This document shows, in pieces, positions 4,981-51,590 of a stretch of 64,000 nt of DNA. Origin of the DNA: an uncultured delta proteobacterium (GTDB taxonomy: Bacteria; Myxococcota; Myxococcia; Myxococcales; Anaeromyxobacteraceae); the NCBI GenBank assembly GCA_963757745.1, contig CAVWSG010000007.1, forward strand, positions 490,932 to 554,931. The letters run 5' to 3'. Position numbers and translations under genes: made by a program. Under the pieces are notes generated by a model. It saw only the letters and a program-made list of their open reading frames with translations. It was not told the DNA's origin and searched no databases. Position 1 is the stretch's first letter. Every line of letters starts with the position of its first letter.

Positions 4981-5956
<976 letters not shown>

Positions 5957-5963
5957 CGCCGGC

Positions 5964-7338
5964 TCAGGCGCGCCGCGGTGCGCGGGGGTCGGCCACCCGC
6001 GGGTCGCCGGCGAGCGCGCGCCGCAGCTCCTCGAGCTGCTCGCGCTGTGCGCGCGAAGGCTCGGCGTAGACGCCCTCGAAGAGCGTCTCGGGCGGCGGCC
6101 GGGCTGGCTGCGCCTCGGCCTCGCGCACCGCCGCCATGACGCGCGCCCTCGCCTCGGCCTCCTCGCGCGCACCTTCCACCTCGGTGAGGAGCCCCCGCCG
6201 AACGAGGTGCGCGCGCAGCCGGAGGATGGGGTCCTTCTTCCGCCACGGCTCCACCAGCTCGGGCGCGCGGTAGGCGCGAGGGTCGTCGGAGGTGGAGTGG
6301 CCCTCGACGCGGTAGGTGACGAGGTCGAGCAGGGTGGGCCCCTCGCCCCGCGCCGCCCGGGCTCGGGCGCGGGCGGTCGCCTCGTGGACGGCCAGGAGGT
6401 CGTTGCCGTCCACCCGCTCGCCGTGAATTCCGTAGGCCTCGGCCTTCCGGGCGATGGAGGCGGAGGCGGTCTGCCGCTCGACGGGGAGGCTTATCGCCCA
6501 GCCGTTGTTGCGGCAGGCGAACACCACCGGCACCCGGTGGACGCCGGCCAGGTTGAGGCCGGCGTGGAAGTCGCTGCTGCTCGTCGCCCCCTCGCCGAAG
6601 TAGACCAGCGCGACCATGGCCTCGCCCCGGATGCGCGCCGCCCAGGCGGCCCCCACCGCCTGCGGGATCTGCGTGCCGATGGGAGAGCTCACCGAGCTGA
6701 AGAGGGCCGGACGCCACGCCTGGTGGCAGGGCATCTGGTGGCCCGAGCATGGCGTCGCCGGCGTTGCCGAGCAGCCCGCAGATGAAGGTCGAGAGCGGCA
6801 GGCCGCGCATGAGCGCCACGCCCTGCTCGCGGTAGCTGGGAAAGATCCAGTCGCTGGCGGCCATGGCGCTCGCTGCGCCGAAGACGGCGGCCTCCTCGCC
6901 CACCGACCCCACGTAGAAGCCGATGCGCCCCTGCCGCTGCAGCGCCACCATGCGCTCGTCGAGCGCGCGGTCGAGCACCATCCAGCGGTGGAGCTCGAGG
7001 AGCTCGCCGTCGCCGAGGAGCGAGGGGCGCAGGGCGGCGCCGTCGGCCGCCAGCCCCCGGAGGAGCGGGTAGCGCTCGTCGCCCGCCGCGTCGCTCGCGC
7101 TGGGCCCGGCCACGGGCGCCGCCGCGTCGCGGGGCTCGGCGCCGGGCGTCGCAGGCATCGGCGGAAGGCTCTCCGGCTGCGAGGGTGCCGGGGCGGCGCT
7201 GGACGTCTCGGGGCCGGAGGGCGCGCCTTCCACCCGCGCCCGCCGTGCCTCGCGGCGCGCGCTGCCGTTGGCCTCGGCCCGGACACGCGCCGCCGCCGGC
7301 CGCGGCTCGGGCGGGCTCATCCCCCGCTCATCGGGCAT
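5964..7338 (-). CDS. 2-oxoacid dehydrogenase E1 alpha subunit (TPP-binding), reading frame interrupted once (~6739-6744), long Pro/Ala-rich N-terminus
   Basis: N-terminal part ...[53 protein letters not shown]...[10 protein letters not shown]-terminal part [40 protein letters not shown]...[12 protein letters not shown] is in another frame. The ATG at 7338 overlaps the lipA stop. Confidence 0.8.
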
Positions 7339-18063: not shown

Positions 18064-19077
18064 ATGGCCCACGGCGTCGTCGACAGCGAGCGAGCCACCG
18101 CCCTCGTCACAGGGGCCGGGGGCTTCCTCGGCCGCACGCTCGTCAGGGCGCTCCTGGAGAGGGGCTACCGGGTGCGCGCCATGATCCGGCCGGGAGGCGA
18201 CGCGGGCGCGCTCCGACCCGTGGAGGGCGAAGCACTCGAGATCTTCCGCGGGGACGCGACCGACGCGGCCGCCCTGGATCGCGCGGTGAAGGGGTGCGCG
18301 CTCGTCTATCACCTGGCCGGCGTGCGCCGCGGCGCCCGGCGGGAGGACTTCTTCGCGGTGAACGCCGGCTCCACTCGGCTCCTGCTCGAGGCCTGCGCCG
18401 CGGCCGGAGCCGGGGGGCAGCGGTTCGTGCTGGCCGGCTCGCTCGCCGCGGCGGGGCCCTCGCGCGATGGGCGGCGCGAGGAGGACCCGGGGGAGCCCGC
18501 CGAGTGGTACGGAGAGTCGAAGGCGGAGGCGGAGCGCCTCGCCCGCTCCTTCCGGGGTTCGCTGCCCGTGAGCATCGGGCGGCCGCCCCGCATCTTCGGC
18601 CCGGGCGACCGCGAGAACCTCCTCTTCTTCCGCCTCGCCGCGCGAGGGGTGGTGCTGCGCTTCCTCGGGCCGGAGCGGCCCCTCTCCTGGATCGACGTCG
18701 ACGACTGCGCCCGCGGCTTCCTCGCGCTGGGAGAGCACCCGGCTGCAGCGGGAGAGGACTTCTTCCTCTCCTCGCCGGAGCGCACCAGCGTCACCGGCCT
18801 GCAGCGCGAGGTGGCGCGCGCGCTCCACGTGAAGACCTTCGACGTGCCGGTGCCGCCCGCGCTCCTCTCCGGGCTCTCCTGGGCGGCCGATGGGCTCTCG
18901 CGCCTCACGCACCGGAGGCTCCCGCTCAACCGCAAGCTGGCGCGGCAGATCCTCGCACCCGGGTGGACCTGCGATCCCGGCAAGGCGGAGCGCCTCCTCG
19001 GCTTCCGGACCGGGGTCGCGCTCGCCGAGTCCCTCGCCCGCTCGGCAGACTATTATCGCGGCGAAGGATGGTTGTAG
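18064..19077 (+). CDS. NAD(P)-dependent epimerase/dehydratase (extended SDR)
   Basis: LVTGAGGFLGRTLVRALLERGYRV Rossmann fold ... YGESKAEAE (YxxxK). Confidence 0.85.
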   Translation: MAHGVVDSERATALVTGAGGFLGRTLVRALLERGYRVRAMIRPGGDAGALRPVEGEALEIFRGDATDAAALDRAVKGCALVYHLAGVRRGARREDFFAVNAGSTRLLLEACAAAGAGGQRFVLAGSLAAAGPSRDGRREEDPGEPAEWYGESKAEAERLARSFRGSLPVSIGRPPRIFGPGDRENLLFFRLAARGVVLRFLGPERPLSWIDVDDCARGFLALGEHPAAAGEDFFLSSPERTSVTGLQREVARALHVKTFDVPVPPALLSGLSWAADGLSRLTHRRLPLNRKLARQILAPGWTCDPGKAERLLGFRTGVALAESLARSADYYRGEGWL

Positions 19078-19138
19078 GATTCGCCCCCCACACACCGATG
19101 CCAGGGCCACAGCCAAGAGAGCCGGACGTCACCCGCGC

Positions 19139-19816
19139 ATGAGCGATCAGAAGCGAGCCGCGTTCTTCGACGTCGAGGGGACGCTGGTCCGGACCAACAT
19201 CGTTCACGCCTTCGCCTTCTACGCGGTGAACGGGGGCGGCATCTTCGGCAGCGCCTGGCGCACCGCCCGCACGGTGATGGGGGTGCCGCTCTTCTGGGCG
19301 CTCGACAAGGTCGACCGGCGCACCTTCAACGAGCTGTTCTACCGCTCCTACCGCGGGCTCACCGAGGACCGGCTGCTGGCGCTCTCGCAGGAGCTCTTCG
19401 AGGAGGTGCTGCGCCCGGCGATCTTCCCTGGCACCCCGAAGCTGGTCGACGAGGCGCGCCGCGCTGGCTGCCGCATCGTGCTCGTCACCGGCGCCCTCGA
19501 CTTCACCGCCCGGGAGCTGGCGCGCCACCTCGGCGCCGACGACCTCATCGCCAACCGCATGCACTTCGTGAAGGGCTTCGCCACCGGCCGGGTGGTCCCG
19601 CCCATCGTCGAGGGGGCTCACAAGGCGGTCATCGTGCGCGACTACTGCGTGCGCGAGGGGCTCGCCCTCGACCGCAGCCACGCCTACTCCGACTCGTTCT
19701 CCGACTACCCCATGCTGGCGGTGGTTGGCCATCCGGCGGCCGTGAACCCCGACCTCCGCCTGCGCAGCGTGGCCCGCTCCTACGACTGGCCCATCTTCGA
19801 CACCACGGAGGGCTGA
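19139..19816 (+). CDS. HAD-IB superfamily hydrolase (phosphoserine-phosphatase-like)
   Basis: [11 protein letters not shown] (DxxGT motif I) ... VTGALDFTA ... [10 protein letters not shown]. Confidence 0.8.
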
Positions 19817-19817
19817 C

Positions 19818-21436
19818 GTGCCCCCTCGCCCCGCGCCCCGACTTTCCCGCCTCTACGATCAGTCCGAGCCGGTGGTCACCATCGACCGCGACTCTGCGCC
19901 GCGCGTCATGTTCTCCGGGGAGGACCTCCTCCTGGAAGACCTGCCGATTGGGACCAGGGTCGTCTACCCGAAACCGCCGATCGCCGGGCTCCCCAACCCT
20001 CGGGCGGCGGTGCGCTGGGCCATCAACCACCCCGAGGGGTGCGACCCGCTCCACGCGCAGCTCCGGCCGGGGATGAGGGTCACCATCGCCATCGACGACA
20101 TCTCGCTGCCGCTGCCGCCCATGCGGACGCCCGATGCGCGCAGCGGGTGCTGGAGGTGGTGCTGGAGCTCCTCGCCGACGCCGGGGTGGACGACATCCAC
20201 CTGGTCATCGCGATCTGCCTGCACCGGCGGATGACCGACGCCGAGGTGAAGCGGATGGTGGGCCCCAACATCTTCGACGCCTACTACCCCGACCGGCTCT
20301 ACAACCACGACGCCGAGGATCCCGACGGCCTCGTCACGCTGGGAACCACCGCCCACGGCGAGTCGGCGAGCTGAACCGGCGCGCTGCCGAGTCCGACCTC
20401 GTCATCTACGTCAACCTGAACCTCGTCCCCATGGACGGGGGCCACAAGTCGGTCGGCACCGGCCTGACCAATTACCGGGGCGTGAAGGCGCACCACACCC
20501 CGCACCACATTCGCAAGAGCGACTCCTACATGGATCCGGATCGCTCGGAGATGCACCGCTCGATCGACCGCATGGGCCAGCTCATCGACCGCGAGCTGAA
20601 CGTGTTTCACATCGAGACCACCATCAACAACCGCATGTTCGACGGGCCGATGGAGTTCCTCATGCGGCGCGAGGAGGCCTGGACCGAGATGGACCGGCTG
20701 AAGCTCGCCGGCCTGCGCGCCGCGCTCGCGAGGATGCCGCGCGCTGCCCGCCGCAGGATCTTCCAGGCGGTCCCGGCGGCCTACGAGGTCATCGCGGTGC
20801 ACGCCGGCCGCACCGAGGCCACCCACCGGAAGATCCTGGAGCGGAGCTGGGAGCAGTACGCCGTCGACGTCGACTTCCAGGCCGACATCGCCATCGTCGG
20901 CATCCCCTACATCTCGCCCTACAACGTGGACTCGATCTTGAACCCGCTGCTGGTGCAGGTGATGGCCTGCGGCTACCTCTTCAACCTCTACCGCGGCAAG
21001 CCCCTCATCAAGAAGGGCGGCACGCTCATCATCACGCACCCGTGCACCGACGAGTTCGACCCGGAGCAGCACCCGAGCTACATCGAGTTCTTCCACCGCC
21101 TGCTGCCCGAGACGCGCGACGCCGAGGTGCTGGAGCGGAAGTACGAGCTGGAGTTCGCCGAGAACCCGAGCTACGTGCACATGTACCGGACCGGCCACGC
21201 CTACCACGGCGCGCACCCCTTCTTCATGTGGTACTGGGGCGAGAACGGTCGCCAGCACGTCGGCCGCGATCATCGCGGTGGGCGCCGAGAACGAGCACGT
21301 GCCGCGCATGTTGGGCTGGGAGAGCGCCGAGCGCCTCTCCGACGCCATCGACATGGCCCGCGCCCGCCAGGGCCGCAGCGCGCAGGTGGCGATGTTCCAC
21401 ATCCGCCCCATCGCCCTGACCCAGAACCTCGGATGA
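19818..21436 (+). CDS. LarA-family (lactate racemase-like, DUF2088) protein; reading frame interrupted three times in this sequence
   Basis: Three segments in three frames reassemble one LarA-like protein: ...[23 protein letters not shown] | [40 protein letters not shown]...LGTTAHGE | [23 protein letters not shown]...[20 protein letters not shown] | [21 protein letters not shown]...[11 protein letters not shown]. The stop TGA overlaps the next ATG (ATGA). Confidence 0.75.
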
Positions 21437-24400
21437 GCTCTCGGTCCGACAGCCGGCCGGCGCCCGCGATGCCCGCGCCCCGAGCCGGGGCGAGCGAGCC
21501 CGGCGCAACCGTCCGGCCGCCGCTCGACGTCGCCGCCGCCCTGCGCGGAAGGAAGCTCCTCATCACCGGCGCCACCGGCTTCGTGGGCAAGGTGATGCTC
21601 TCGATGCTGCTCCACCGCTATCCCGGGGTGGGCCAGGTCTTCGTGCTGGTTCGGCCCGGCACCGGCGGCACCCCCGACGCTCGCTTCTTCGGCAAGGTGG
21701 CCGAAGGGCGTCCCTTCGACCCGGTGCGCGCCCAGCACGGCGAACGTTACGCTGCGTTCATGCGCGAGAAGTGCGTGCCGCTGGCCGGCGACGTCACCCA
21801 CCCCATGCTCGGGCTCTCCGCCGCAGATCTAGCAGCGCCTGGAGGGGCTCGCCGCGGTGGTGAACTGCGCCGGCCTCGTCGACTTCAACCCCTCGCTCGA
21901 GCTGGCGCTCAACGTGAACGTGGCGGGCGCCGCCCACGGGGCCGAGCTGGCCAAGGCCGCCGGCTCCGTCCTCATCCACGTCTCCACCGCCTTCGTGGCC
22001 GGCAACCGAAGCGGCGTGGTCTTCGAGGACGAGCCCATCGAGGGCTACTTCCCCAGGCGCGGCGACGTGGAGGGCCGGCCCTCGCAGGACGACCGCGAGG
22101 CGCGCGACCCGCGCGACTTCGACCTCGACCGGGAGATCGCCGACTGCCAGCGCGCCATCGCCCGCGTGCGGCAGGAGGTGGACGACGCCGCCGTGGTGGC
22201 CGAGCTGCGCGCCCGGGCCCAGGAGCGGCTTCGAGGCGAGGGACGCGGCCGGGGCGACGAGAAGGCGGAGCGGCTCGCGCTGGGGCGGGAGAAGCGCCTG
22301 TGGATCTCGCAGCGGCTGGTGGCGCTGGGGATGGAGCGCGCCAGGGCCTGGGGCTGGCCCAACACCTACACCTACACGAAGAGCCTGGGCGAGCAGGCCA
22401 TCGTGAGGAGCGGCGGGCGACACGTCCTGGTGCGCCCCTCCATCGTGGAGACGGCCCTGCGCTACCCCTTCCCCGGCTGGAACGAGGGGTTCACCACCAG
22501 CGCGCCGCTCGCCTTCCTGGGCCTGAAGGGCCACCGCGTCTACCCGATGGGCGAGCGGACCATCCTCGACATCGTTCCGGTCGACCTCATCGCCGCAGGC
22601 ACCCTCGCCGTCATGGCCGAGGCCATCGGCGGAGCGCCCGAGCGCGTCTACCACCTCGCCTCGGGCGACGTGAACCCCTTCTACGCGCGGCGCACCGTGG
22701 AGCTCGTGGGCCTCCACCGCCGCCGCATCTTCCTCCGCCGCGAGTCGGGCCAGAAGCTCGTGAACCAGCTCCGCGCGCGGGTGGAGCCCTACTCGGTCTC
22801 GCGCGCCCACTACCGCGCGTTCAGCACGCCGGCGCTCACCCGCCTGGCGGGCGCCGCCGCCAGGTTCCTGCGCGAGGAGGGGCGGCAGTGGGGCGCGCCG
22901 CGCCTCTCCGCGCTGGCGAGCCGCGCCGCCGACGCCGCCGACGAGGTGGAGAGCAAGCTCGCCCAGACCGAGCTGCTCTTCGACCTCTTCATGCCCTTCA
23001 TCTGGGACAACCGGTACCTCTTCCGCTGTGCCCACATGCGGGAGCTCTTCGGCCGGCTTTCCCCCGAGGACCAGGCCCGGCTCCCCTGGGATCCCCACGC
23101 CATCGACTGGCGCTCCTACTGGCTCGACGTCCACCTGCCGGGCATGGAGGAGTGGGTCTTCCCCGGGCTGGAGGAGGAGTCGAAGCGCAAGGTGCACGGC
23201 GTGCGGACCCACCGCGACCTCCTGGAGCTCTTCCAGGCCTCCTGCCAGACGCACCGGCAGCGGGTGGCGGTGCGGATGAGCGGCTCGCGCAAGGAGCGCT
23301 ACACCTTTGGTGAGCTCCGCGCGGCCGCCGAGCGGATGGCGGGCAGTCTTGCCGCGGCCGGCGTGGCGAAGGGCGACCGGGTCCTGCTGGTGAGCGAGAA
23401 CCGGCCCGAGTGGCCGGTGGCCTTCTTCGGCATCCTGATGGCCGGCGGGGTGGTGGTGCCCGTCGACGCGCAGGCCCCCGAACCGGAGGTCGAGAACCTG
23501 GCCCGCAGCTCGGGCGCGAAGGCGGCGCTCCTCTCCGACGAGGTCGAGCTGCGCCTCGAGGAGCTCGCCGCACGCTGGCAAGGTGGCGCCGGACCGCAGG
23601 TTCTCCCGCTCGCCGAGGCGCTGGCGGGAGACCCGGCGCGGGCACCCCGCGTCGCGCCCCCCGGGGCCGAGGAGGTGGCGGCGCTCCTCTACACCAGCGG
23701 CACCTCCTCGGCCCCCAAGGGCGTCCTCCTCACCCACCGCAACTTCACCAGCCTGGTGGCGAAGCTGGCGAGCCTCTTCGACGTGGGGCCGGGCGACGCC
23801 CTCCTCTCGGTGCTCCCGCTCCACCACACCTTCGAGCTCACCTGCGGCATGCTCGTGCCCTTCTCGCGCGGCGCCGAGGTGGAGTACCTCGACGAGATCA
23901 CCGTCGACACGCTGGGTGATGCCCTGGAGAGCGGCCGCATCACCGCCATGATCGGGGTGCCGGCGCTCTGGTCGCTCCTGCACCGGCGCATCACGCAAGA
24001 GCTGGCGGCGCGGCCAGCCTGGGTGGAGGGTACGGCGAAAGCGCTCATGGGCGCCCACGGCAGCCTCCGCGAGCGGCTCGGCGTGAACCTCGGCAAGCTC
24101 CTCTTCTGGCCGGTTCACCGGCGGCTGGGCGGGCGGCTCAGGCTCCTCGTCTCCGGTGGCTCGGCGCTCGACCCCGCCGTGCAGAAGGCCTTCCACGAGC
24201 TGGGCCTCGATCTCCAGGAGGGGTACGGCCTCACCGAGGCGGCGCCGGTGCTCGCCGTCGCGAACCCGCGGGAGGACGGACTCGCGGCTGGGGTGGGCCA
24301 CGCCATCCCCGGGGTCGAGCTGCGCATCGACGCGCCCGACGCGTCCGGCGTGGGCGAGGTGCTGGCCCGGGGGCCGAACGTGATGCTCGGCTACGCGCGC

Positions 24401-25936
24401 GCTGGCGCTTCTTCACCCGAGGTGGACGAGGCGCTCACCGGGGAGGTGCTCTCGGACGGCTGGCTCCGCACCGGCGACCTGGGGCGGCTCGACGCGGCCG
24501 GGCGGCTCGTCCTGTGCGGCCGCAAGAAGGACCTCATCCTCTCCGCCGACGGACACAACGTCTACCCCGACGACGTGGAGGAGCTGTACCGCTCCGAGGA
24601 TCTCCTGAAGGAGCTCTCGGTGGTGGGCCTCCGCGAGGGCGGTCCCGGGGCGGGTGGCGAGGAGGCGGGCCTGCACGAGCGCGTGGCCATGCTGGCGGTG
24701 CCCGCCTGCCGGGGAAGGGAGCGCGCCGCGGTGCACCAGCTCATCGAGGCACACGTGAGGGAGGTCTCGGCGCGCCTGCCCTTCCACCAGCGGGTGAAGG
24801 TGTGGCACCTCACCGAGGTGGAGCTGCCCCGCACCGCCACGCGCAAGGTGAAGCGCGACTTCGTGGCCACCGAGCTGGCGCGCCTGGAAGCGCTGGCCCG
24901 GCGGCCGGAGCGACCCGAGGGCGCTCGCCCCGCGGGCGGCGACGCCTGGCTCCTCGACCTGGTGGCGGAGGTCTCCCGGCGCGCCCGCGATTCGGTCCGC
25001 CTCTCCTCGAAGCTCGGAGGCGACCTCGGCTTCGACTCGCTCATGCTCACCGAGCTCGCCGCCGCGCTGGAGCAGGCCGGGGCACCCGCGACCGTCACCG
25101 AGCACCTCCAGTCGTACGACACGGTGGCGGATCTCTCGCGGGCGGTGAGCGCCTCGATGCCCCAGGTGGCGGCCCGCCACGCGGTGCAGGTCACGGACCC
25201 CGCCTCGACCGGCGGCGCCGCCCGCGCTGGCGAGGAGCGGGCCGGAGAGCTCTTGGTCCCCGAGCCGGTCGCTGCGCTCGGGCGCCGGCTCCTGGGCCTG
25301 GGCCAGCGCATCCTCTACCGCGACGTCTACGCCACCACCGTGCGAGGCAAGGGATTCATCCCGCACGACCGCAACTTCCTGGTGGTGGCGAACCACCAGA
25401 GTCACCTCGACATGGGCCTGGTGAAGGTGGCGCTGGAGGAGGAGGGCTCGAAGCTGGTGGCGCTCGCCGCGGCCGACTACTTCTTCGACACGCCGCTCAA
25501 GCGCGCCTACTTCGAGAACTTCACCAACCTCATTCCCATGGATCGGGCGGGCTCGGTGCGCCGCAGCCTGCGCGCCGCCGTCGCCGCGCTCCGGCAGGGG
25601 CAGCACCTCCTCATCTTCCCCGAGGGCACCCGCTCGCGGGGCGTGGAGATGGCCTCCTTCAAGCCCACCGCCGGCTACCTCGCCCTGCACTGCGGGGTGG
25701 ACACCCTGCCCGTCTTCCTCCGCGGCACGCACGAGGCGCTCCCGGCCGAGTCGCTCCTGCCGCGCTCGGCCAAGCTGGAGGTGATCATCGGGAGGCCCAT
25801 CTCGGTCTCGGAGCTGCGCCGGCAGACGGCGGAGCTTCCCAGGGGCGAGGCGCACAAGGAGGCGACCCGCATCATGGAGGCCGCCGTGCGCGCCCTGGGC
25901 GGTCCGGCCGGCGGCACGGCCGGAGGACTCCCGTGA
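21433..25936 (+). CDS. Multidomain lipid enzyme, ElbD-like (about 1500 aa), one frame interruption near 21833-21841. Domains in order: fatty acyl-CoA reductase (NAD-binding), AMP-dependent acyl ligase, acyl carrier protein, lysophospholipid (AGPAT) acyltransferase
   Basis: FAR: [19 protein letters not shown]...VNCAGLVDF...[13 protein letters not shown]-binding: [21 protein letters not shown]...[30 protein letters not shown]-binding: [22 protein letters not shown]: [13 protein letters not shown]...[11 protein letters not shown]. Confidence 0.85.
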
Positions 25937-26928
25937 AGCTGCTCGTCACCGGTGGCACCGGCTTTCTCGGCTCCGCGCTGGTGCCCCTGCTCGTGCAGGC
26001 CGGGCACGCCGTGCGCGTCCTCGCCCGCGGCGACTCCGAGGAGGCGCGGGCCTCCGGCGTGGAGGTGGTGAGCGCCTCGCTGGAGGACCGCCCCGCCGTG
26101 CGCGCGGCGCTCCGGGGCGTGGAGGCGGTGTTCCACCTGGCGGGCCGGGTGGCCTTCGACGCCCGCGACCCGCAGGCCCTGTACCGGCTTCACGTGGAGT
26201 GCACGCGGACCCTCCTCGAGGACGCGCACGCCGCCGGGGTGGGCCGCATGGTGATGGCCTCCACCTCGGGGACCATCGGCATCTCGCGCGAGGAGAAGGT
26301 GCACGACGAGTCGGACCGCCACCCGATCCAGGTGGTGGCGCGCTGGCCCTACTACCTCTCCAAGATCTACCAGGAGAAGACCGCGCTCCGGTTCCACCGC
26401 GACACCGGCTTTCCGGTGGTGGCGCTGAACCCCTCGCTCCTGCTCGGACCCGGCGACGCGCGCCTCTCCTCCACCGACCTCGTCTTCAAGTTCCTGGAGC
26501 GGCGCATCCCGGCCATGCCCGGGGGCGGCCTCTCCTTCGTCGACGTGCGCGACACCGCGGCGGCCTTCGCCTCCGCGCTCACCCGGGGGCGCCCCGGCGA
26601 GCGCTACCTCCTCGGCGGCGCCAACATGACCTTCGCCGACTTCTTCACCCGCCTGTCACGCCTCTCCGGCGTGCGGGCGCCCGTGCTGCGCCTCCCCTCC
26701 GGGCTCAGCGTGGCCGGGGCCGGGCTCCTCGAGCGCTTCCACACCTGGCGCGGCACCGAGCCGCCGCTCTCGGTGGAGGAGGTCGACATGGGCGAGCACT
26801 GGTTCTACATCGACAGCGGCAAGGCGCGCCGGGAGCTCGGCTTCACCTCGCGTGACCCCGGCGAGACCTTGCACGAGACGGTGAGCTGGCTCGACCGCCA
26901 CGTGCGGCAGGTGAGGAAGGACCGCTGA
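25934..26928 (+). CDS. NAD-dependent epimerase/dehydratase family protein (SDR)
   Basis: [20 protein letters not shown]...YYLSKIYQE; the GTG overlaps the upstream stop (GTGA). Confidence 0.85.
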
Positions 26929-26979: not shown

Positions 26980-28266
26980 CTACGACAGGAACGCGGCGTC
27001 GATCTCGGCCACCTGCGCGGCGTCGATGGGGACGAGCTTCCCCAGAGCGCGGGAGGCGAGGAGCGCCTTGGCGCTGTACTCGGCCACCTCCAGGCGGTCG
27101 AAAGCGTTGAGGAGCGAGCTGCCGGTGACGATGACGCAGTCGTTCTCCACCAGCGCGAGCGGCCGCTCCGCGGTGAAGGCGGCGGCGGTGCCCTGCGGAT
27201 CCATGAAGGTGCAGCCGAAGGGCAGCTTCTCCACCTTCCGCAGCAGGATGTAGCTCTCGGGGATGGTGCGCGAGTCGAACGCCTCGCCGGTCACCGCGAA
27301 GGCCATGATGGCGGGCGGGTGGGCCACGATCACCGAGCGGACGTGCGGGTGGCGCGCGTAGATGGCCTCGTGCAGCACCACGGAGCGGCTCGGGAGCTTC
27401 CCCGCCTCGTGCGCGCCGCCCTCCACCCGGACGAGATCCTTCTCGGCGAGATAGCGGCGGTCGAAGCCGTAGGGCGTGATGATGAAGCCGCCTTCGGGGA
27501 GGCGCTGCGAGAAGGTGCCCTGGGTGCTGGTGAAGAGGAGCTGGTCGCAGGCGCGGCGGACGAGCTGGCACAGCTCGCGCCTGAGCGACCGCTCCTCGCT
27601 CGAGGCCGGGCGCGGCGGGAGCTCCGGCATCTGGACGTGCTGCTTGTGGCGTGAGAGGGCAATCTGCTCCTCGGAGAGGCCGCGCGGGGCGCCGATGCGC
27701 ACCGCCCCGAGCTCCAGCCGGGCGCAGAAGTCGAGCGTCTCGAAGGCCATGAAGGCGCGGAAGAGGTCCTCGCCGCCCACCACCGCCCCGTGGTTCTCGA
27801 GCAGCACCGAGTCGCACCCCCGGGCGAAGACGGCGGCGATCTTGGCGCCCAGGTCGGCGCTGCCGGGGAGGCCATAGGGCGCGAGCCCCACCTCGCCGCA
27901 GACGATGCGGGCGTTGGGGACGAGCGAGGTGTCGGGGAGCCGCCGGACGATGCTGAAGGCCACCAGCGCCGGCGGGTGAGCGTGGACGATGGCGCGGAGC
28001 TCGGGCCGGGCGGCGTAGATCTGCTGGTGAAAGGGCAGCTCCACCGACGGCTTGTGGATGCCCTCCACCGCGCCCCCCGGCCGCACCCGCATGACGTCAC
28101 GGGGGGTGAGCGAGCCCTTGTCGACGCCGCCGGGCGTGATCCACAGGTCGCCGTTCTCCTCCAGGATGGAGAGGTTCCCGCCCGAGGTGGTGGTCATGCC
28201 ATAGGCGTAGATGCGCTCCATGATCATGACGAGCTGCTCGGCGGGGTGCAGAAGGTCGAAATCCAT
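26980..28266 (-). CDS. Tandem (duplicated) class II aldolase/adducin-domain protein
   Basis: Two consecutive class II aldolase domains, each with the HxHxxH metal-ligand pattern (AIVHAHPPALVAF and SVIVAHPPAIMAF); no N-terminal extension. Confidence 0.8.
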   Translation of the reverse strand: MDFDLLHPAEQLVMIMERIYAYGMTTTSGGNLSILEENGDLWITPGGVDKGSLTPRDVMRVRPGGAVEGIHKPSVELPFHQQIYAARPELRAIVHAHPPALVAFSIVRRLPDTSLVPNARIVCGEVGLAPYGLPGSADLGAKIAAVFARGCDSVLLENHGAVVGGEDLFRAFMAFETLDFCARLELGAVRIGAPRGLSEEQIALSRHKQHVQMPELPPRPASSEERSLRRELCQLVRRACDQLLFTSTQGTFSQRLPEGGFIITPYGFDRRYLAEKDLVRVEGGAHEAGKLPSRSVVLHEAIYARHPHVRSVIVAHPPAIMAFAVTGEAFDSRTIPESYILLRKVEKLPFGCTFMDPQGTAAAFTAERPLALVENDCVIVTGSSLLNAFDRLEVAEYSAKALLASRALGKLVPIDAAQVAEIDAAFLS

Positions 28267-28320
28267 GGGCGCGGATCTAGGATCTCGCCTTCGCGGCCGC
28301 CCGCACTTCGAGAAGGCGGG

Positions 28321-29442
28321 CTACTTCCCCAGCGCGCGCACCAGCTCGTCGGTGACCCGCCGCACCAGCTCCTCCGCCTCGGGGTCGCGCCCGTCGGAGA
28401 CGCGCCCGGCGGCCACCGTGACGCCCGGCCGCCAGGAGAGGTTGTCGCAGAGCTCGCACTCCTTCAGCCCTTGCCGCGGGTCGGGGATCCCCAGGCCCTG
28501 CTTGATCTTGAGGAGATCCTGCACCTGCTTCGGCGCGATGAAGTTCGGCTCCTTGCCGAGCTGCGCGGTGACGAGCACCGTGCGGCAGTAAGCCTCCACG
28601 ATCTCCATCTTGAAGTAGGCGTCCTCCACGCCGAAGCCCCAGGCCACCACGCCGTGGTTCGCCATCAGGATGGTGTTGTGGCAGTCGGCGAGCTTCGCCA
28701 CCTCGTCGCCCATGCCCTGGGTGCCGGGCGTGAGGTAGGGCGCGATGGGCACCACCCCGCACATGACCTCCATCTCCGGGATCATGCAGGAGGGTGGCTG
28801 CACCCCCGAGACGGCGAAGCCGGTGGCGTGGGGGGGGTGGGCGTGCACGCAGGCCTTGGCCCTGGGCTGCGCCTTGTAGATGGCGAGGTGCATGAGCAGC
28901 TCGCTGGTGCGCCGCCTTCCGGGCGTCTTCTGCACGCCTTCCAGGTCCACCAGGCAGAGGTCCTCGGGCTTCATGAAGCCCTTCGAGACCAGTGTGGGGC
29001 TGCACAGCACGAGATCCTCGGCCACCCGGATGGAGATGTTGCCGCCGTTGCCGTCGACGTAGGCGCGCTGCCAGAGGCGCCGTCCGATGTCGCAGATCTC
29101 CAGCTTGTGCGCCTCGATGGCCGGCGAGCGGAAGAAGCGCTCGATCTCGCTGGGCGCCACCCTGGGGAGGGCGGGCGTGGCCGCGCTCGCAGGGGCGGCG
29201 GGCGCAGCGGAGGCCGCGGGCTTCTCGTAGGCCCCCCCGGCCGCCGGAGCGCCCACGCCGTTCGCCCTGGCTGCGGGAGCCGCGTGCGAGGGCGACAGGA
29301 CCATGGCCGCCCCGTTGCCGCGATCGCGCAGGAGGTCGCGCGCCGAGGGGGTGATGAGCGCGTCGGCGGGGATGGACTGGGCCAGGTCGGCCCCCTTGCG
29401 CAGCAGCTCTTCGACGTCGCGGGCGGAGATGACTCGTCTCAT
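28321..29442 (-). CDS. Class II aldolase (fuculose/rhamnulose-1-phosphate aldolase family) with an N-terminal ~110-aa extension that includes a candidate BMC encapsulation helix
   Basis: MRRVISARDVEELLRKGADLAQSIPADALITPSARDLLRDRG, then an Ala/Pro-rich linker, then an aldolase core (CVHAHPPHATGFAV, GVVPIAPY). Its ATG overlaps the BMC-P stop (ATGA). Confidence 0.8.
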   Translation of the reverse strand: MRRVISARDVEELLRKGADLAQSIPADALITPSARDLLRDRGNGAAMVLSPSHAAPAARANGVGAPAAGGAYEKPAASAAPAAPASAATPALPRVAPSEIERFFRSPAIEAHKLEICDIGRRLWQRAYVDGNGGNISIRVAEDLVLCSPTLVSKGFMKPEDLCLVDLEGVQKTPGRRRTSELLMHLAIYKAQPRAKACVHAHPPHATGFAVSGVQPPSCMIPEMEVMCGVVPIAPYLTPGTQGMGDEVAKLADCHNTILMANHGVVAWGFGVEDAYFKMEIVEAYCRTVLVTAQLGKEPNFIAPKQVQDLLKIKQGLGIPDPRQGLKECELCDNLSWRPGVTVAAGRVSDGRDPEAEELVRRVTDELVRALGK

Positions 29443-29738
29443 GATTTGGGCCTGTAGGTGACGTCGTCGACGATGGCCACGTCGATGGCGTCGATGGGGG
29501 TTTTCTGCGGGAAAGGCTGGGCCGCCTCGCGGCCCTCCACGAAGCCGATGGTGTCGCCCACGCCCGCGCCGAGGTCGTCGTAGACCACCAGCGAGGGCTC
29601 GCGGGAGAGGGGGGGCGGCTCCGCCCCCTGCTGCATGTGCTCGCGGTCGAATGGGCACACGAGGAAGAATCGGCCGCCGGTGAGGGCGGGCGAGGAGACG
29701 CTCAGGGTCACCCTCCCGACCACCTGCCCGAGCCTCAC
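29439..29738 (-). CDS. BMC vertex protein (BMC-P, EutN/CcmL/PduN family), copy 3
   Basis: (V)RLGQVVGRVTLSVSSPALTGGRFFLVCP...VVYDDLGAGVGDTIGFVEG...PIDAIDVAIVDDV; the GTG start overlaps the upstream BMC-P stop. Confidence 0.8.
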   Translation of the reverse strand: MRLGQVVGRVTLSVSSPALTGGRFFLVCPFDREHMQQGAEPPPLSREPSLVVYDDLGAGVGDTIGFVEGREAAQPFPQKTPIDAIDVAIVDDVTYRPKS

Positions 29739-30001
29739 GGGAGGCCTCGCTCGGGCTCGTCGACCACGCCCACGATCATGAGCCTCACCGGGCTCTTCGG
29801 GTCCTTCACCACCAGGCGCGCCCCGAGTCCGTCGGTGGAGACGATGACGCGGGAGTGCATCCCGGCGCCGTGGGGATCGATGGCCACCACCGCCGGTCCG
29901 TTGGGCGTGCCCTCGCCGTCGATGGGCTGGCAGAGGAGGAGCTTCCACCCGTCGAAGCTGGGGTGCTTGCGGGTGGCCACCACCTGGCCCTCGACGCGCA
30001 T
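29735..30001 (-). CDS. BMC vertex protein (BMC-P), copy 2
   Basis: MRVEGQVVATRKHPSFDGWKLLLCQPIDGEG...AVVAIDPHGAGMHSRVIVSTDG...VRLMIVGVVDE. It forms the C-terminal end of a long spurious ORF in the track. Confidence 0.8.
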   Translation of the reverse strand: MRVEGQVVATRKHPSFDGWKLLLCQPIDGEGTPNGPAVVAIDPHGAGMHSRVIVSTDGLGARLVVKDPKSPVRLMIVGVVDEPERGLP

Positions 30002-30012
30002 GAGCTGCACGG

Positions 30013-31518
30013 TCAGTAGATCCGAAGGTTCTCGGACATCACGCATCGACGGATGCGGGTGAAGGTGGCCGGGTTGGTGATGCCCTCCCCGGTGGGCGTG
30101 GCGATGGTGTAGGAGAGGTACCCCTCCCCACCCATGCCGAGGCCGGCCACCGACGGTCCGTTCTTCACGAAGAGCGTGGTGTCGAGCGCCCGCGCCATGG
30201 CGGTCATGCGGCTCACGTCGTGCGAGTGGATGATGGCGGTGTGGCGGAAGCCGTGCTCGGCGCGGAGCGAGCAGGCGATGCCCTCCTCCACCGACTTCAC
30301 CCGCACCACCGGGAGCACCGGCATCATCTGCTCCTCCATCACCCACAGGTCGTCGGCCGCCGTCTCGGCGAAGAGCACCTGCGTGTCGGCCGGCACCTGC
30401 GCGCCCGCCTCGCGGGCGAGGACGGTGGCGTCGCGGCCCACCAGGTCGCGGTTCACGCTGGCGTGGGAGCAGCCCGCCCCCTGCCCCTGCGGGAAGACGA
30501 AGGCGGAGCGGCTGAGCCGCTCGAGCTGCGAGGTGCCGAGTCGGAAGCCGCGCGCCCGCTCCATGGCCGCCATGAAGCGGTCGAACACCGGGGCGAGGAC
30601 GAAGATCTCCTTCTCGCCGATGCAGAGCAGGTTGTTGTCGAAGGCGGCGCCCTGCACGATCTTGCGGGCCGCCGCCTCGAGGTCGACGGTCTCGTCGACC
30701 AGCACCGGCGGGTTGCCTGGTCCGCCGCAGATGGCCCGCTTCGAGGACTGCATGGCCGCCTTCACCACGCCGGGGCCGCCGGTGATGCAGAGGAGCTTCA
30801 CGTGCTCGTTGGCGGTGAGCTCGGCAAAGCCCTCCAGGGTGGGCGCCTCGATGCAGCAGATGAGGTTCTCGATCCCCAGCTCGTGATGGATGGCCTCGTT
30901 GAAGGCGCGCACGGCCACGCTGGCGCAGCGCGCGGCGCCGGGGTGCGGGTTGAAGACGATGCCGTTCCCGCCCGCCACCATGCTCACCACGTTGCCGGCC
31001 AGCGTGGGGATGGAGTGGGTGGAGGGGGTGACCGCGCCGATGACGCCGAAGGGCGTGTGCTCCTCGAGGGTGATGCCGCCGTCGCCGGAGAGGCCGGTCG
31101 GGTGGAGGAACTCGACCCCGGGGACGTTCCGGACCACCTGCAGCTTCTCGATCTTGTGGTCGAGGCGGCCGATCTTCGTCTCCTCGAGCTCGAGGCGCCC
31201 CCACTCGGCGGCGTTGTCGTAGGTGATCTTCTTGACCAGCTCGATCACCCGCTGCCGGCCGGCGACGCCCTTCTCCCGGAGCTGCCGGAAGGCGGCGTCG
31301 GCCGCCTCGCACGCCTCGTCGACGTCGCCGAAGACGCCGTAGTGGCGCCCGCCGCTCGCCTTGGCGCACGTCCCGGCGTGCGAGCAGGTCCCGCTCGCCG
31401 CCGGCTGGGTTGGTGCCGGGGCGCGCGCGACGCCGTTCTGGCCCGCGCCGCGCCCGAGCTGACCCAGGATCTCCTGGACGATGTCTCGGACCAGGGTTTC
31501 GTCGATGGCTGTTCTCAC
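30013..31518 (-). CDS. CoA-acylating aldehyde dehydrogenase (PduP/EutE-like) with an N-terminal encapsulation peptide
   Basis: (V)RTAIDETLVRDIVQEILGQLG amphipathic helix plus linker, then an ALDH core (VIGAVTPSTHSIPTL ... ICGGPGNPPVLVDE ... catalytic Cys in CIGEKEIFV). GAGGAG lies 5 nt before the GTG. Confidence 0.9.
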   Translation of the reverse strand: MRTAIDETLVRDIVQEILGQLGRGAGQNGVARAPAPTQPAASGTCSHAGTCAKASGGRHYGVFGDVDEACEAADAAFRQLREKGVAGRQRVIELVKKITYDNAAEWGRLELEETKIGRLDHKIEKLQVVRNVPGVEFLHPTGLSGDGGITLEEHTPFGVIGAVTPSTHSIPTLAGNVVSMVAGGNGIVFNPHPGAARCASVAVRAFNEAIHHELGIENLICCIEAPTLEGFAELTANEHVKLLCITGGPGVVKAAMQSSKRAICGGPGNPPVLVDETVDLEAAARKIVQGAAFDNNLLCIGEKEIFVLAPVFDRFMAAMERARGFRLGTSQLERLSRSAFVFPQGQGAGCSHASVNRDLVGRDATVLAREAGAQVPADTQVLFAETAADDLWVMEEQMMPVLPVVRVKSVEEGIACSLRAEHGFRHTAIIHSHDVSRMTAMARALDTTLFVKNGPSVAGLGMGGEGYLSYTIATPTGEGITNPATFTRIRRCVMSENLRIY

Positions 31519-31832
31519 GGTGCTCCTCGTGCGGAGTAGATGATCTTTCCGAGCACGTCGACCTCGTCGACGATGCCGATGATGACGGCGTCGACCGGGG
31601 CGCGGTCGAAGCCCGGCGCCAGGCGAGCCGAGCTCCCCTGGCAGAACAGCACCAGCTCACCCTCGCCGGCGCCCACGCTGTCGACCGCCACCACGGTGTT
31701 GGTCCCTGGGCGGAAGCGCGAAGGGTCGACGTCGTCGACGAGCTGCGGCCGCAGGAGCAGCAGCTTGCGGCCCGACATGGCGGGGTCTTTCTTGGTCGCC
31801 ACCACCGACCCCAAGACGCGCGCCAGGAACAT
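31515..31832 (-). CDS. BMC vertex protein (BMC-P), copy 1
   Basis: MFLARVLGSVVATKKDPAMSGRKLLLLRP...VVAVDSVGAGEGELVLFCQGSSAR...AVIIGIVDEV. Confidence 0.85.
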   Translation of the reverse strand: MFLARVLGSVVATKKDPAMSGRKLLLLRPQLVDDVDPSRFRPGTNTVVAVDSVGAGEGELVLFCQGSSARLAPGFDRAPVDAVIIGIVDEVDVLGKIIYSARGAP

Positions 31833-31837
31833 GGGGG

Positions 31838-32164
31838 CTACTTTCCCTTCGGCGAGGGGGCAGCGGGCGTCTCGGGCGGCGTGGCCGACCTGGGCAGCAC
31901 CTGGCCCACGTCGTCGTGCGGGCGGGCAATGACGTGCACCGAGGCCACCTTGCCGCCCACCGCGCGCGCCGCCGCGGCGCCGGCATCGGTGGCGGCCTTC
32001 ACCGCGGCCACGTCGCCCACCACCACCGCGGTCACGAGGCCGCTGCCCACGTGCATCATCGGACCGGCGAGCTGCACGTTGGCCGCCTTCAGCATGGCGT
32101 CCGTGCCCTCCACCAGGGCCACCAGGCCCACCGTCTCCAGCATCCCGATCGCTTGAATCGCCAT
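31838..32164 (-). CDS. BMC hexamer shell protein (BMC-H, PduA/EutM-like)
   Basis: [34 protein letters not shown]...[23 protein letters not shown]...SVHVIARPH. Confidence 0.9.
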
Positions 32165-32212
32165 GTGTTCTCCCAGGGTGAAAGCTTCACGCCGTCGAAA
32201 GAGTTCCGTCCT

Positions 32213-33409
32213 TCACGCGCCCCGCGGCCGCGCCGCGAGAAGGCGCGCCACCTCGCGCGCCACCACCAGCTCCTCGTTGGCCGGGATGACGAGCACCCGC
32301 GCCCGCGCCCCGGCGGCGGTGAGCTCCGCCTCCGCCCCGCGGGTCGCCGCGTTGGACGCCGGGTCGAGCGCGAGCCCCAGCCCTTCCAGGCCGGCGCACA
32401 CCCCCGCCCGCACCGAGGCCGAGTTCTCGCCGATGCCCCCGGTGAAGACGAGGGCGTCGATCCCGCCGAGCTCGAGGAGGAAGGCCCCGGCCCACCGGCG
32501 CGCCTCGTGGACGAGCACGTCGAGCGCGAGCCTCGCCGGTGCCTCTCCGCGGAGGGCGGCCTCCTCCAGATCGCGCACGTCGTTCAGCCCGCCCGAGAGA
32601 CCCTTCAGGCCCCCCTCGCGCGAGAGCGCCCGCTCCGCCTCGTCGAGCGAGAGCCCGAGGGTGCGCATGACGTAGGGCAGCGCCATCGGGTCGAGGTCGC
32701 CCACCCGGTCGTTCTGCGGCAGGCCCGACTGCGGGCTCATGCCCATGCTGGAGCCGATGGCCACGCCATCGCGCATCCCGGTGACCGAGGAGGAGCCGCC
32801 GAGGTGGCAGGAAACGACCCGCAGCGGCGGACCCGCGACGGGACTCCGGCCCCCATCCACGTAGAGCCTCCTCGCCCGCTCGGCCACGTCGGGCCGGCCG
32901 AGGAGCTCGGCCGCCCGCTCGGCCACGAACTTGTGGCTCGCGCCGTGGAAGCCCCAGCGCCGGACGCCGGCCTCTCGCCAGCGCTCCGGCACCGCGTAGC
33001 GCGTGGCCGCCTCCGGCACCCACTGGTAGAAGGCGGTCTCGAAGAGCGCCACCATGGGCGTGCCGGGAAGAGCACGGCCGAAGGCGCGGATGCCGCGGAC
33101 GTAGGTCGGGTTGTGGACGGGCGCGATGCCGGCGTAGGCCTCCATCGCCGCGAGCACCGGCTCGTCGGCCAGCACGCAGCCCGAGATCCCCTTCGCCAGC
33201 ACGGCCTTGAAGCCCACCGCGGAGAGCTCGGAGAGGTCGCGCAGCGCCCCCTTCTCCCGCAGCGCCGCCAGGCACGCCTCGATCGCCTCGCCGTGGTCGG
33301 CGAGCCGCTCGAAGCCGCCCTTGGCGAGCACCCGCTCCTCGCCGTCGCCGAGCTCGAAGAGCCGGTACTTGAGCGAGGTGGAGCCGAGGTTGGCGACCAG
33401 GATCTTCAC
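32213..33409 (-). CDS. ackA: Acetate/propionate-family kinase
   Basis: MKILVANLGSTSLKYRLFEL ... VVSCHLGGSSSVTGMRDG ... LVFTGGIGENSASVR. Confidence 0.9.
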   Translation of the reverse strand: MKILVANLGSTSLKYRLFELGDGEERVLAKGGFERLADHGEAIEACLAALREKGALRDLSELSAVGFKAVLAKGISGCVLADEPVLAAMEAYAGIAPVHNPTYVRGIRAFGRALPGTPMVALFETAFYQWVPEAATRYAVPERWREAGVRRWGFHGASHKFVAERAAELLGRPDVAERARRLYVDGGRSPVAGPPLRVVSCHLGGSSSVTGMRDGVAIGSSMGMSPQSGLPQNDRVGDLDPMALPYVMRTLGLSLDEAERALSREGGLKGLSGGLNDVRDLEEAALRGEAPARLALDVLVHEARRWAGAFLLELGGIDALVFTGGIGENSASVRAGVCAGLEGLGLALDPASNAATRGAEAELTAAGARARVLVIPANEELVVAREVARLLAARPRGA

Positions 33410-33432
33410 GGTTGGGTGATCTCCCCGCGCGC

Positions 33433-33711
33433 TCAGGCCAGCCAGCGCCCGAGCCCGGACAGGTCCTCGTGCGGGCGTGGGATCACGTGCACGCTGACCA
33501 CCTCGCCGATGCTGGCGCCGGCGGCCGCGCCGGCGTCGGTGGCGGCCTTCACCGCGGCCACGTCGCCGCGGAAGAAGGCGGTGACGAGGCCGCTGCCGAT
33601 CTTCTCCCAGCCCACCAGGGTCACGTTGGCCGCCTTGAGGGCGGCGTCGGAGGCCTCGAGCAGCGCGCAGAGGCCCTTCGTCTCGATCATCCCGACCGCT
33701 TGCTGTGCCAT
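33433..33711 (-). CDS. BMC hexamer shell protein (BMC-H)
   Basis: [34 protein letters not shown]...[23 protein letters not shown]. Confidence 0.9.
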
Positions 33712-33728
33712 TGTCGTCTATTCTCCGG

Positions 33729-33998
33729 CTACTTGAGGAAGGCGGCGAGGAGCTCGTTGTGAGGGCGGGCGATGACGTGGGAACTGACGAGCTCCCCCAC
33801 CCGCTCGGCCGCGCGGGCGCCGGCGTCGACCGACGCCTTGACGCTGCCCACGTCGCCCTTCACGAGGACGGTGATGAACCCGCCGCCGATGGGGACGGTG
33901 CGCACCATGGCCACGTTGGCCGCCTTGAGCATCGCGTCACTCGCCTCGACGCTGCCCACGAAACCCTTCGTCTCGATCATCCCGAGCGCTTCGTTCAT
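33729..33998 (-). CDS. BMC hexamer shell protein (BMC-H)
   Basis: [33 protein letters not shown]...GGGFITVLVKGDVGSVKASVDAG; GGAG RBS before the ATG at 33998. Confidence 0.85.
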   Translation of the reverse strand: MNEALGMIETKGFVGSVEASDAMLKAANVAMVRTVPIGGGFITVLVKGDVGSVKASVDAGARAAERVGELVSSHVIARPHNELLAAFLK

Positions 33999-34039
33999 CT
34001 CCACTCTCCTCACTGGTTTGTCGTTCGGACCCGGGCTCT

Positions 34040-34711: not shown

Positions 34712-34713
34712 CG

Positions 34714-36602: not shown

Positions 36603-36741
36603 CTTCCGTCAAGCTCCTCTAGGACCTTCGCCCCCGCGCGGCGATCGATGGCGCATGATGGGGCAAGCCCCCTCCGGGATCAAGGGGCCCGCCGCGACCA
36701 ATGTGCCTGGAATGGCTCACTATAACCTTTTAGCCGCACGG

Positions 36742-39489: not shown

Positions 39490-39669
39490 GACTCCGGAGG
39501 GTGAGAGGAGGTTGTCACGGGCGCTGCCGGGCTGCCTTGGGAACTCCGCCAATCTTCGCCCCGAGGCGCTCCGGAAATCGAAGGAAAAGCGCCGCCACGG
39601 AAGGGGTCTCGCCGCGCTGGAAAGGAGCGCGCTCCGGAGGTATCCTCGCTCTTTCCCGGCAGGTGCCCG
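39490..39669. promoter_or_regulatory. Divergent intergenic control region between the rhaB-BMC operon and the rhaS-like regulator
   Basis: 180-bp non-coding gap between two divergently oriented genes; it is expected to hold both promoters and AraC-type operator half-sites. No motif was confirmed. Confidence 0.4.
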
Positions 39670-40789: not shown

Positions 40790-40861
40790 AGGCACCGCCC
40801 GGATTCGAACCGGGGAATGAGGGTTTTGCAGACCCTTGCCTTACCACTTGGCGACGGTGCC
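40790..40861 (-). tRNA. tRNA-Cys (anticodon GCA)
   Basis: 72-nt cloverleaf folded by hand. Acceptor GGCACCG/CGGUGCC, 3-bp D stem with short loop, anticodon stem AGGGU/ACCCU with loop CUGCAAA, T arm CCCGG-UUCGAAU-CCGGG, discriminator U. No CCA is encoded. Confidence 0.8.
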
Positions 40862-48886: not shown

Positions 48887-51590
48887 CTACCCCGCGGTCT
48901 GCAGCCCGGCGGCGATGCCGTTCACCGTGAGCGAGAGCGCGTCGCGCACGCGCGCGGCCTCGGCGCCCGAGGCGTGGGCGAGGCGCTCCATGAGCTCAAT
49001 CTGCAGGTGCGAGAGCACGTCGATGTAGGGGTCGCGCCGCTCGGCGGCCCGAGCCAGCGTGGGCCACGGGTCGAGGAGGCCCTCGTCGCCGGTGAGGGCG
49101 AGGATCGCCTTCACCGTCCGTGAGTGCTCAGCGCGGATGAGCTCGAAGAGCCCGCGGTCCTCCGGCGCCGCCAGCGCCGCGTAGCAGGCGGCCACCTCCG
49201 GGTCGGCCTGGGTGAGGGCGAGCCGCGCGTTGTCGACGAGGCCCCGGAGGAGCGGCCACTCGGAGTAGGCCGCTCGCGCGGCCTCCGGCCCCAGCTCGCC
49301 GAGGAGCGCCTCGAGGGCGCTCCCCAGCCCGAACCACCCCGGAAGGCCGTGACGGCTCTGGTTCCAGGAGAACACCCAGGGGATGGCGCGGAGCGAGGCG
49401 AGGGTGAGCTGCCCGGTCCGGCTCGACGGGCGCGAGGCGAGCCGCAGCTCGGGCATGTGGGCGAGCGGCGTCGCGGCCAGGGCGTAGCGCGCCAGCCGGT
49501 CCGGATCGGCGGTGAGCTCGCGGTAGGCGCCGAGGGCCGCCTGCGCCGCGCGCGCCAGCGTCTCCTCCCGGGCGTGGGTGGCATCCTCCGCGGCGGTGGA
49601 GCCCACCCCGGCGGAGGCCACCAGGACCGCATTCACCATCTGTTCAAGATCGCGCCGGGCGATCTCCAGCCGCCCGTAGCGGGTGGCCACCGTCTCGCCC
49701 TGCTCGGTGACCCGGAAGCGCCCGCGCAGCGCGGCGCGCGGCTGCGCGCGGATGGCGCGGTTGGCCGGTCCCCCGCCGCGCCCGACCGCCCCACCGCGGC
49801 CGTGGAAGATGGTGAGCGTGACGCCCTCGGCCTCGGCCACCTGGGCGAGCGCGAGCTGCGCCTTGTGCAGCGCCACCTGGCTCGGCACGTAGCCCACCTG
49901 CTTGCCGCTGTCGGAGTAGCCGACCATCACCTCCAGCTCTCCCCGCAGGGCGGCGCGCAGCGGCGGCAGCGAGAGCGCCCGGCGCGCGAGCTCGCTCCCC
50001 GCCTCCAGATCCTGGAGCTGCTCGAGGAGCGGCACCGGCCGGATCTCGTCCGTGGCGAGACCCGCCGCGCGCGCGAGGAAGAGCACCTCGACGAGGTCGC
50101 TCGTCGCGCTGGTGAAGCTCACCACGTACCGCTCGCACGCCTCGGGTCCGATGTCGCGGCGCGCCCAGCCCACCACCCGCAAGGTCTCCAGCACCTCCCG
50201 CGTCTCGGGGGAGAGGCGCTGCCGGGCCGCCGCCGGGAGCGAGGGGCGCGAGAGCGCGTCCACCAGCCGCTCCACGCGCTCCCGCTCGGGCAAGGCTCCG
50301 TAGCCCGGGGACCCCCCTTGCGCCAGGATCTCGGCGACGGCGCGCTCGTGCACGGCCGAGTGCTGCCGCACGTCCAGCGAGGCGAGGTGGAAGCCGAAGA
50401 CCTCCGCCCGCCTCCGCGCGTCCTCCAGCGCCCCCCGCGCCAGCCTCGACAGGCCGGCGGCGGTGAGGGTGCGCTGGAGCAGCTCGAGGTCGGCCCGGTA
50501 GGCTCCCGCCTCGGCGTAGCCGCCCTCGGCGCGCACCCGGGTGGCCTCGAGCCGCGCGCGCATGAAGCGGAGCTTCTCGCGCCACAGCTCGTCCGCCCTG
50601 AGTCCCGGGCGCGTGACCGGCTCGCGCACCCGCTCCCGGTCTGCCGCGATGGAGGCGACGAGCTCCTCCACCGCCGCGCCCCCCGCGCTCGCGGCCGAAA
50701 GCCCGTGCGACAGCTCGCCCACGTCGCGCGCGTGGCGGGCGAGGGCCACCGCCCGCTGCCGCTCGAGGGCGGCGCGGGTCACGTCGGCGGTGACGAAGGG
50801 GTTCCCGTCGCGGTCGCCGCCAATCCAGGAGCCGAAGCGCAGGAACGGGCCGACCTGGAATTGCGCCGCCGGCCAGCGGCTGGCGCAGGGCGCGCTCGAG
50901 CTCGCGGTAGACGGCCGGCACGGCGTCGAAGAGCGTGCGCTCGAAGTGAATGAGGCCCGCTCCCACCTCGTCGAGAGGGGTGGGGCGCTCGGTGCGCCCC
51001 TGCCTCGTGGCGGCGAGGGCGGTCACCAGCTCGCGCAGGCGCCCGGCCAGCCCCTCGCGCTCGCGGGCACCGGACCTCGGGTCGTCGAGGAGGTCGAGCA
51101 CCGCGCCGATGCGGCCGAGGTGGTCGAGCACGGTGCGCCGCCGGGCCTCGGTGGGATGGGCGGTGAGCACCGGCATCACCAGCAGTCGATCGAGCAGCGC
51201 CTGGACCTCGCCGGGCGTGGCCCCGCGGGCGTGCAGTTCCTCCACCGCCGCCGAGAGCGAGCCCTCCACCGCCGCCTCCGGGCGATCGCGCGCCCGGAGC
51301 AGCCGGGTCCGGTGCGCCTCCTCCGCCGTGTTGAAGAGGTGGAAGAGGTCGGCGAAGGCCTCGGCCAGGAGCTCCAGCCGCTCAATCGGCTGGGCGTGCA
51401 GCGCCGCCGCGAAGGCCTGCCGCCCGCCGGGGAGCTCCCCCCGCCGCAGGGCGAGCGCCGACTGGCGCACCCCCTCGACGAGCGTGAGCGCGTCCTCGCC
51501 GTGCAGCTCTGCGACCGTCTCCCCCAGCACGCGCCCGAGCAGGCGCATGCGCTCGCGCAGCGCGGATTCGTCCTCACCGGAAGCCGCCAC
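48887..51590 (-). CDS. ppc: Phosphoenolpyruvate carboxylase, one frame interruption at ~50876
   Basis: N-terminal ...RLLGRVLGETVAELHGE...VMPVLTAHPTEARRRT... in one frame. FQVGPFLRFGSWIGGDRDGNPFVT...C-terminal VNGIAAGLQTAG in another. The start is at the GTG at 51590 with a GGGGAG RBS. Confidence 0.85.

Follow-up and report, generated by a model that had tools for sequence, protein, structure and literature searches.

Single-base frame breaks in an elbC-like gene of the LarA superfamily in an Anaeromyxobacteraceae metagenome contig are probably consensus errors

How should a gene be read whose protein can be followed only by changing frame three times? The question is raised by the following gene, found in a 64-kb stretch (G+C content 72.6%) of an Anaeromyxobacteraceae metagenome contig; the whole of this stretch was analysed and is referred to below as the window.

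19818..21436, + strand, elbC-like gene of the LarA superfamily (Lar_N, DUF2088), GTG start, TGA stop

A first-pass annotation had described three frame breaks in this gene and proposed that it is either truly a pseudogene or lies in a stretch of poor consensus. Both explanations still stand, and the evidence now favours a poor consensus. Across the region one protein is encoded in consecutive pieces over four overlapping open frames, which are joined at three positions:

20139..20143, + strand, break 1: one base lost at 20141/42 (CGC-CAG becomes CGCAG), frame 0 to frame 2
20363..20370, + strand, break 2: one base lost inside GGCGAGTCGGCGAG, frame 2 to frame 1
21265..21268, + strand, break 3: one extra base, GGCCGC[G]ATC, frame 1 to frame 2

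The signs of the breaks are -1, -1 and +1, and the frames follow in the order 0, 2, 1, 2. The GC3 phase runs 2, 1, 0, 1, with switches at about 20135, 20362 and 21269, and within each piece the signal keeps to 0.9-1.0. In tblastn an orthologue matches the window by four HSPs (residues 3-111, 111-186, 188-486 and 487-541, in window frames 3, 2, 1 and 2), and at the junctions the orthologue residues are contiguous, none being lost. Alignment with 12 orthologue DNAs gives exactly three internal gap columns, each of 1 nt; each break is indeed the gain or loss of a single nucleotide, as had been claimed.

All three breaks exist, and the position first given for one of them is wrong. Break 1 had been placed in the G-run at 20154-20158, about 15 nt too far downstream, since that stretch already reads L-E-V-V in the new frame. 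The break lies at the single C common to the Arg codon CGC (20139-41, frame 0) and the Gln codon CAG (20141-43, frame 2); in the DNA alignment the window has GCGCG-CAG where the orthologues have GCGCGCCAG, the base being absent after 20140/41. The positions proposed for the two other breaks (about 20360-20366 and about 21255-21268) agree with those found here. At break 2 the stretch TCGGCGAG should encode three codons (x-V-x) of the family pattern H-G-E-x-V-x-[VLI]-N-R-R. The DNA alignment places the absent base in GAGTCGGCGA-GCTG, and the missing base is probably the T of a GTC codon. The old frame meets a TGA at 20372.

The orthologue comparison, which the first-pass annotation had suggested as a check, drew on 80 related loci taken from genome assemblies. 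The elbC-like orthologue is a single open frame of about 535-545 codons in every locus inspected, and the 12 orthologous DNAs and 119 homologous proteins compared all have one open frame, of about 537-540 aa. None of the breaks recurs in an orthologue. A frame disrupted relative to functional orthologues is what is expected of a pseudogene, and this is the state of the elbC-like gene as it is assembled.

Three 1-nt corrections, one base added at each of breaks 1 and 2 and 21268 removed, restore an uninterrupted ORF of 539 codons. The repaired protein matches Pfam Lar_N (PF09861) over residues 52-229 with 115.3 bits (cutoff 23.3 bits), a match that bridges breaks 1 and 2. A search of 5.8 billion proteins returned more than 6,000 homologues, the nearest of which (P0001) is intact, has 539 aa and is 88% identical over its full length.

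The description of the gene as LarA-like holds at the level of the superfamily, given the Lar_N match and the solved LarA-like relatives. Among solved structures the closest are PDB 9q2u/9q3k (498 aa), LarA-like nickel-pincer nucleotide (NPN) enzymes, together with 9q3j (DUF2088, 505 aa). Chain 9q2u_A aligns with an E-value of 1.9e-34 over the stretches 36-261 and 328-516, in both halves of the elbC-like protein; in this alignment LHRR corresponds to LHRK and GGHK to GGYK. The canonical lactate racemase LarA (5huq) is distant: it matches the N-terminal domain only, with an E-value of 1.5e-7, and the elbC-like protein is about 110 aa longer.

The gene is surrounded by the following neighbours:

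18064..19077, + strand, elbA-like NAD-dependent epimerase/dehydratase, intact (Pfam Epimerase)
19139..19816, + strand, elbB-like HAD phosphohydrolase, intact (Pfam HAD)
21433..25936, + strand, elbD-like multidomain gene (FAR/NAD_binding_4, AMP-binding, PP-binding, acyltransferase), 1500 aa with one base removed
25933..26928, + strand, elbE-like NAD-dependent epimerase/dehydratase, intact (Pfam Epimerase)

The TGA stop of the elbC-like gene overlaps the ATG of elbD (ATGA). The order of the genes is that of elbA-E of M. xanthus, the ether-lipid or plasmalogen operon (Lorenzen et al. 2014, reviewed in PMC9131029): NAD-epimerase, HAD hydrolase, a protein of unknown function, a FAR-ACS-ACP-acyltransferase and NAD-epimerase (PMC9131029). 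The window has the full ElbD architecture of FAR-like, acyl-CoA synthetase, ACP and AGPAT-like acyltransferase domains; in the repaired protein Pfam finds NAD_binding_4 at 44-388, AMP-binding at 600-987, PP-binding at 1172-1238 and Acyltransferase at 1302-1428. To judge by gene content and order, 18064-26928 is a complete predicted operon of the elbA-E ether-lipid type. Synteny of elbB-C-D-E was found in 5 of the 9 loci examined, in Anaeromyxobacter, Myxococcaceae, Acidobacteriota and Gemmatimonadales, and the proteins that occupy the elbC position in Myxococcaceae MAGs are 65-67% identical to the window protein. The putative elbC assignment comes from this position and synteny, not from comparison with the M. 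xanthus ElbC sequence. If it is correct, the slot of the unknown-function ElbC would be filled by a LarA-superfamily (Lar_N) protein with NPN enzymes as its nearest solved relatives, a possible clue to the chemistry of ElbC; an ether-lipid preprint contains no statement that ElbC is LarA-like.

Downstream of elbE, the genes from about 26980 to 40530 resemble a bacterial microcompartment locus for the use of rhamnose or fucose:

26983-28320 (- strand) and adjoining 28321-29658, two class II aldolases (Pfam)
29439-34313, EutN-like and BMC-H-like shell ORFs
30013-31518, aldehyde-dehydrogenase-like ORF
32213-33409, acetate-kinase-like ORF
34040-34711, PduL-like ORF
35265-36602, RnfC-like ORF
36770-38013, L-rhamnose isomerase (Pfam)
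38017-39552, FGGY kinase (Pfam)
39670-40530, AraC-type regulator-like ORF

Where Pfam is not cited, the microcompartment names were taken from the translations and from Pfam tags on the syntenic genes of the closest relative's contig (L081, see below). The product of 26983-28320 (446 aa) has two Aldolase_II matches, as a tandem or fused class II aldolase might; the adjoining aldolase gene has a long N-terminal extension. Beyond this locus, the 2.5 kb between 40468 and 43020 are without clear GC3 coding phase; they hold tRNA-Cys (40790-40861, - strand), the one RNA gene that ARAGORN or Rfam detected, and a putative low-complexity ORF of 398 aa on the - strand (40875-42071), with a high content of Arg, Ala, Gly and Pro.

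We then come to the state of the elbC-like gene between its breaks. The alignment with the 119 homologues has 114 invariant columns, and the repaired window protein violates none of them (0/114); the homologues, tested leave-one-out, violate 0.36 on average and 3 at most. The four pieces of the gene have a GC3 of 0.91-0.97, next to 0.95-0.96 for the enolase, fumarase and acetate kinase of the window. Identities to the nearest relative are 76% for ElbA, 92% for ElbB, 68-86% for ElbD and 82-91% for ElbE, and the 88% of the elbC-like protein falls inside the range of these flanking genes. Thus no relaxed selection is seen in invariant residues, in codon bias or in divergence relative to the neighbours. 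Nonsense mutations were sought in the coding segments across the 64 kb and none was found: the in-frame stops within these segments are all true gene ends, with complete domains on either side. By these measures, all of them drawn from sequence, the elbC-like gene is not decaying.

The whole window was also scanned for frameshifts with a GC3-phase HMM, followed by inspection of ORFs, translation and Pfam. Three of its nine candidates (13098, 19129 and 57398) turned out, after the ORF and Pfam check, to be ordinary gene boundaries. The HMM missed break 2 because a stop comes within 12 nt. Four breaks outside the elbC-like gene were retained:

21830..21837 (about 21834), + strand, break 4, in the elbD-like gene: one extra base, CTAGC[A]GCG, from alignment with 9 orthologue DNAs
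5383..5395, - strand, in the E1 beta gene of a 2-oxoacid dehydrogenase (about 4981-5956), +1 or -2
6732..6747, - strand, in the E1 alpha gene of a 2-oxoacid dehydrogenase (about 5964-7338), +1 or -2
50855..50873, - strand, in the PEP carboxylase gene (about 48887-51596), +1 or -2

Break 4 lies about 400 nt into the elbD-like gene and is absent from the first-pass annotation. The NAD_binding_4 match reaches 44-388 only after the base has been removed, and bridges the repaired site. The break comes directly after three rare A/T-ending codons in succession (GCA GAT CTA), and an AGATCT palindrome lies within this stretch. In E1 beta, Transket_pyr and Transketolase_C are in different frames; so are positions 2-82 and 89-298 of the E1_dh profile in E1 alpha, and positions 1-228 and 236-919 of the PEPcase profile in PEP carboxylase. 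The lesions are therefore not confined to dispensable genes. In total the window has seven breaks of the ±1 type, roughly one per 9 kb, of which four fall inside 1,693 nt (P = 0.002 by simulation with random placement). None of the seven sites (0/7) has a long homopolymer, the classic context of nanopore errors. GATC, considered as a shared error motif, is found at breaks 3 and 4 and is absent at the other five; it was dropped as post hoc.

The closest relative lies on a contig of 530,734 bp (ENA ERZ25039597 'contig_5736', here L081) whose called genes look fragmented. The same HMM gave 18 frame-break candidates in 21.6 kb of it (positions 1-21620), as compared with 1 and 0 in two Anaeromyxobacter isolate genomes; the single isolate candidate was judged a false positive, since its 421-nt overhang is that of the discarded window candidate at 13098. 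In L081 elbC is intact, and elbD and elbE each show by tblastn at least three frame switches (at least four frames), at positions that differ from those of the window. Independent sequence of the window's own population was also sought. Eight window proteins were found letter for letter in a public protein collection, each on one contig, and the elbB-like product is there in identical form; for the repaired elbC-like protein the best match was only 88% identical. Two scans of metagenome contigs for the unaltered sequences on either side of break 1 and of break 3, with a gap of 0-1 nt between them, gave no match.

With a probability of about 0.8, we consider the breaks to be indel errors from a stretch where the metagenome assembly has a poor consensus. 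Sequencing or consensus error is inferred as the cause because four other conserved genes are broken and constraint is not relaxed. Single-base insertion and deletion errors would have entered the assembled Anaeromyxobacteraceae contig, and a low-quality patch of consensus would run through the elbC-like gene and 400 nt into elbD. Four breaks within 1.7 kb point to such a local patch, which the A/T-ending codons before break 4 also fit; the denser breaks of the sister MAG, at other positions, argue for a technical cause. In the organism the elbC-like gene is then most likely intact, a single ORF of 539 codons that would stand third in an ether-lipid operon of the elbA-E type. The signature of indels alone does not decide the matter, for indels also dominate real young pseudogenes, and a very recent inactivation likewise leaves no signal of decay.

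Genuine and very recent pseudogenisation, by which elbC (three indels) and elbD (one) would be inactivated and ether-lipid synthesis lost, is the likeliest of the alternatives, and we hold it to be unlikely. Four breaks concentrated in two neighbouring genes of the same operon would fit it, as would the position of the sites outside homopolymers, and M. xanthus needs neither elbC nor elbD for growth, its mutants being viable (PMC9131029). However, the broken E1 alpha, E1 beta and PEP carboxylase genes would need a separate cause or a genome-wide decay, while coding density is unimpaired, start and stop codons still overlap and codon bias is preserved. Under neutrality one may roughly assume 5-10 substitutions per indel, so several invariant positions should have changed; none of the 114 has, and GC3 is undiminished. 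Nor is there a nonsense codon anywhere in the window, and the breaks of the sister MAG are far denser and lie elsewhere. That the indels are real, in which case this Anaeromyxobacteraceae population would be a naturally arisen knockout for the elb pathway of myxobacteria, is accordingly improbable in our estimation. Programmed recoding, which would require two -1 and one +1 ribosomal frameshifts or transcriptional slippage, has a likelihood close to nil. All that speaks for it is the existence of the breaks; against it, the orthologue DNAs (12/12) and homologous proteins (119/119) are single-frame, inspection reveals neither an X_XXY_YYZ heptamer nor a slippery homopolymer at 20139-43, 20363-70 and 21265-68, and the same lesions occur in unrelated genes. 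We know of no gene with three frameshift sites of mixed sign. Programmed frameshifting had been called unlikely from the start; with no break shared by any orthologue and slippery sites absent, it is ruled out as far as this can be judged from the DNA itself.

The consensus could also be chimeric. If reads of closely related strains were collapsed in co-assembly, the polisher may have made a mosaic of them and introduced spurious indels at their points of difference, and the breaks, although artefactual, would mark real microdiversity. This would agree with their local clustering, with the atypical codons beside break 4 and with a metagenomic source represented by one contig in the collections. 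Nowhere, however, does the sequence indicate two haplotypes, and at sequence level a mosaic looks the same as plain low-coverage error; we give it very little weight, less than pseudogenisation.

An ordinary error of the consensus thus remains our reading, and the breaks of the elbC-like gene are very probably an artefact of the assembly, and biologically of little interest. Their value is that of a quality flag. Gene calls from the window's contig would under-report intact genes, and pseudogene counts made from it would be spurious, as would any loss of ether-lipid synthesis, PEP carboxylase or 2-oxoacid dehydrogenase deduced from them. The same warning applies more strongly to the contig of the closest relative, an assembly whose gene calls are unreliable.

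Long contigs laden with errors are typical of long-read metagenome assemblies, and the assembly studied here is probably long-read-only or poorly polished, as far as the technology can be deduced from its errors. The window differs from such assemblies in two respects: its sites lie outside long homopolymers, and its breaks, about one per 9 kb, are moderately dense and patchily distributed. In PMC12007338 the error rates of long reads are described as introducing frameshifts by which genes are falsely pseudogenised, and false pseudogenes due to consensus indels are also described in PMC8103633. The resemblance of the window to long-read or poorly polished assemblies lies in the isolated ±1 indels in conserved ORFs of many unrelated genes, in a sequence free of nonsense lesions and of decay in codon bias or conserved residues, and in a sister assembly that has the same syndrome in a worse form.
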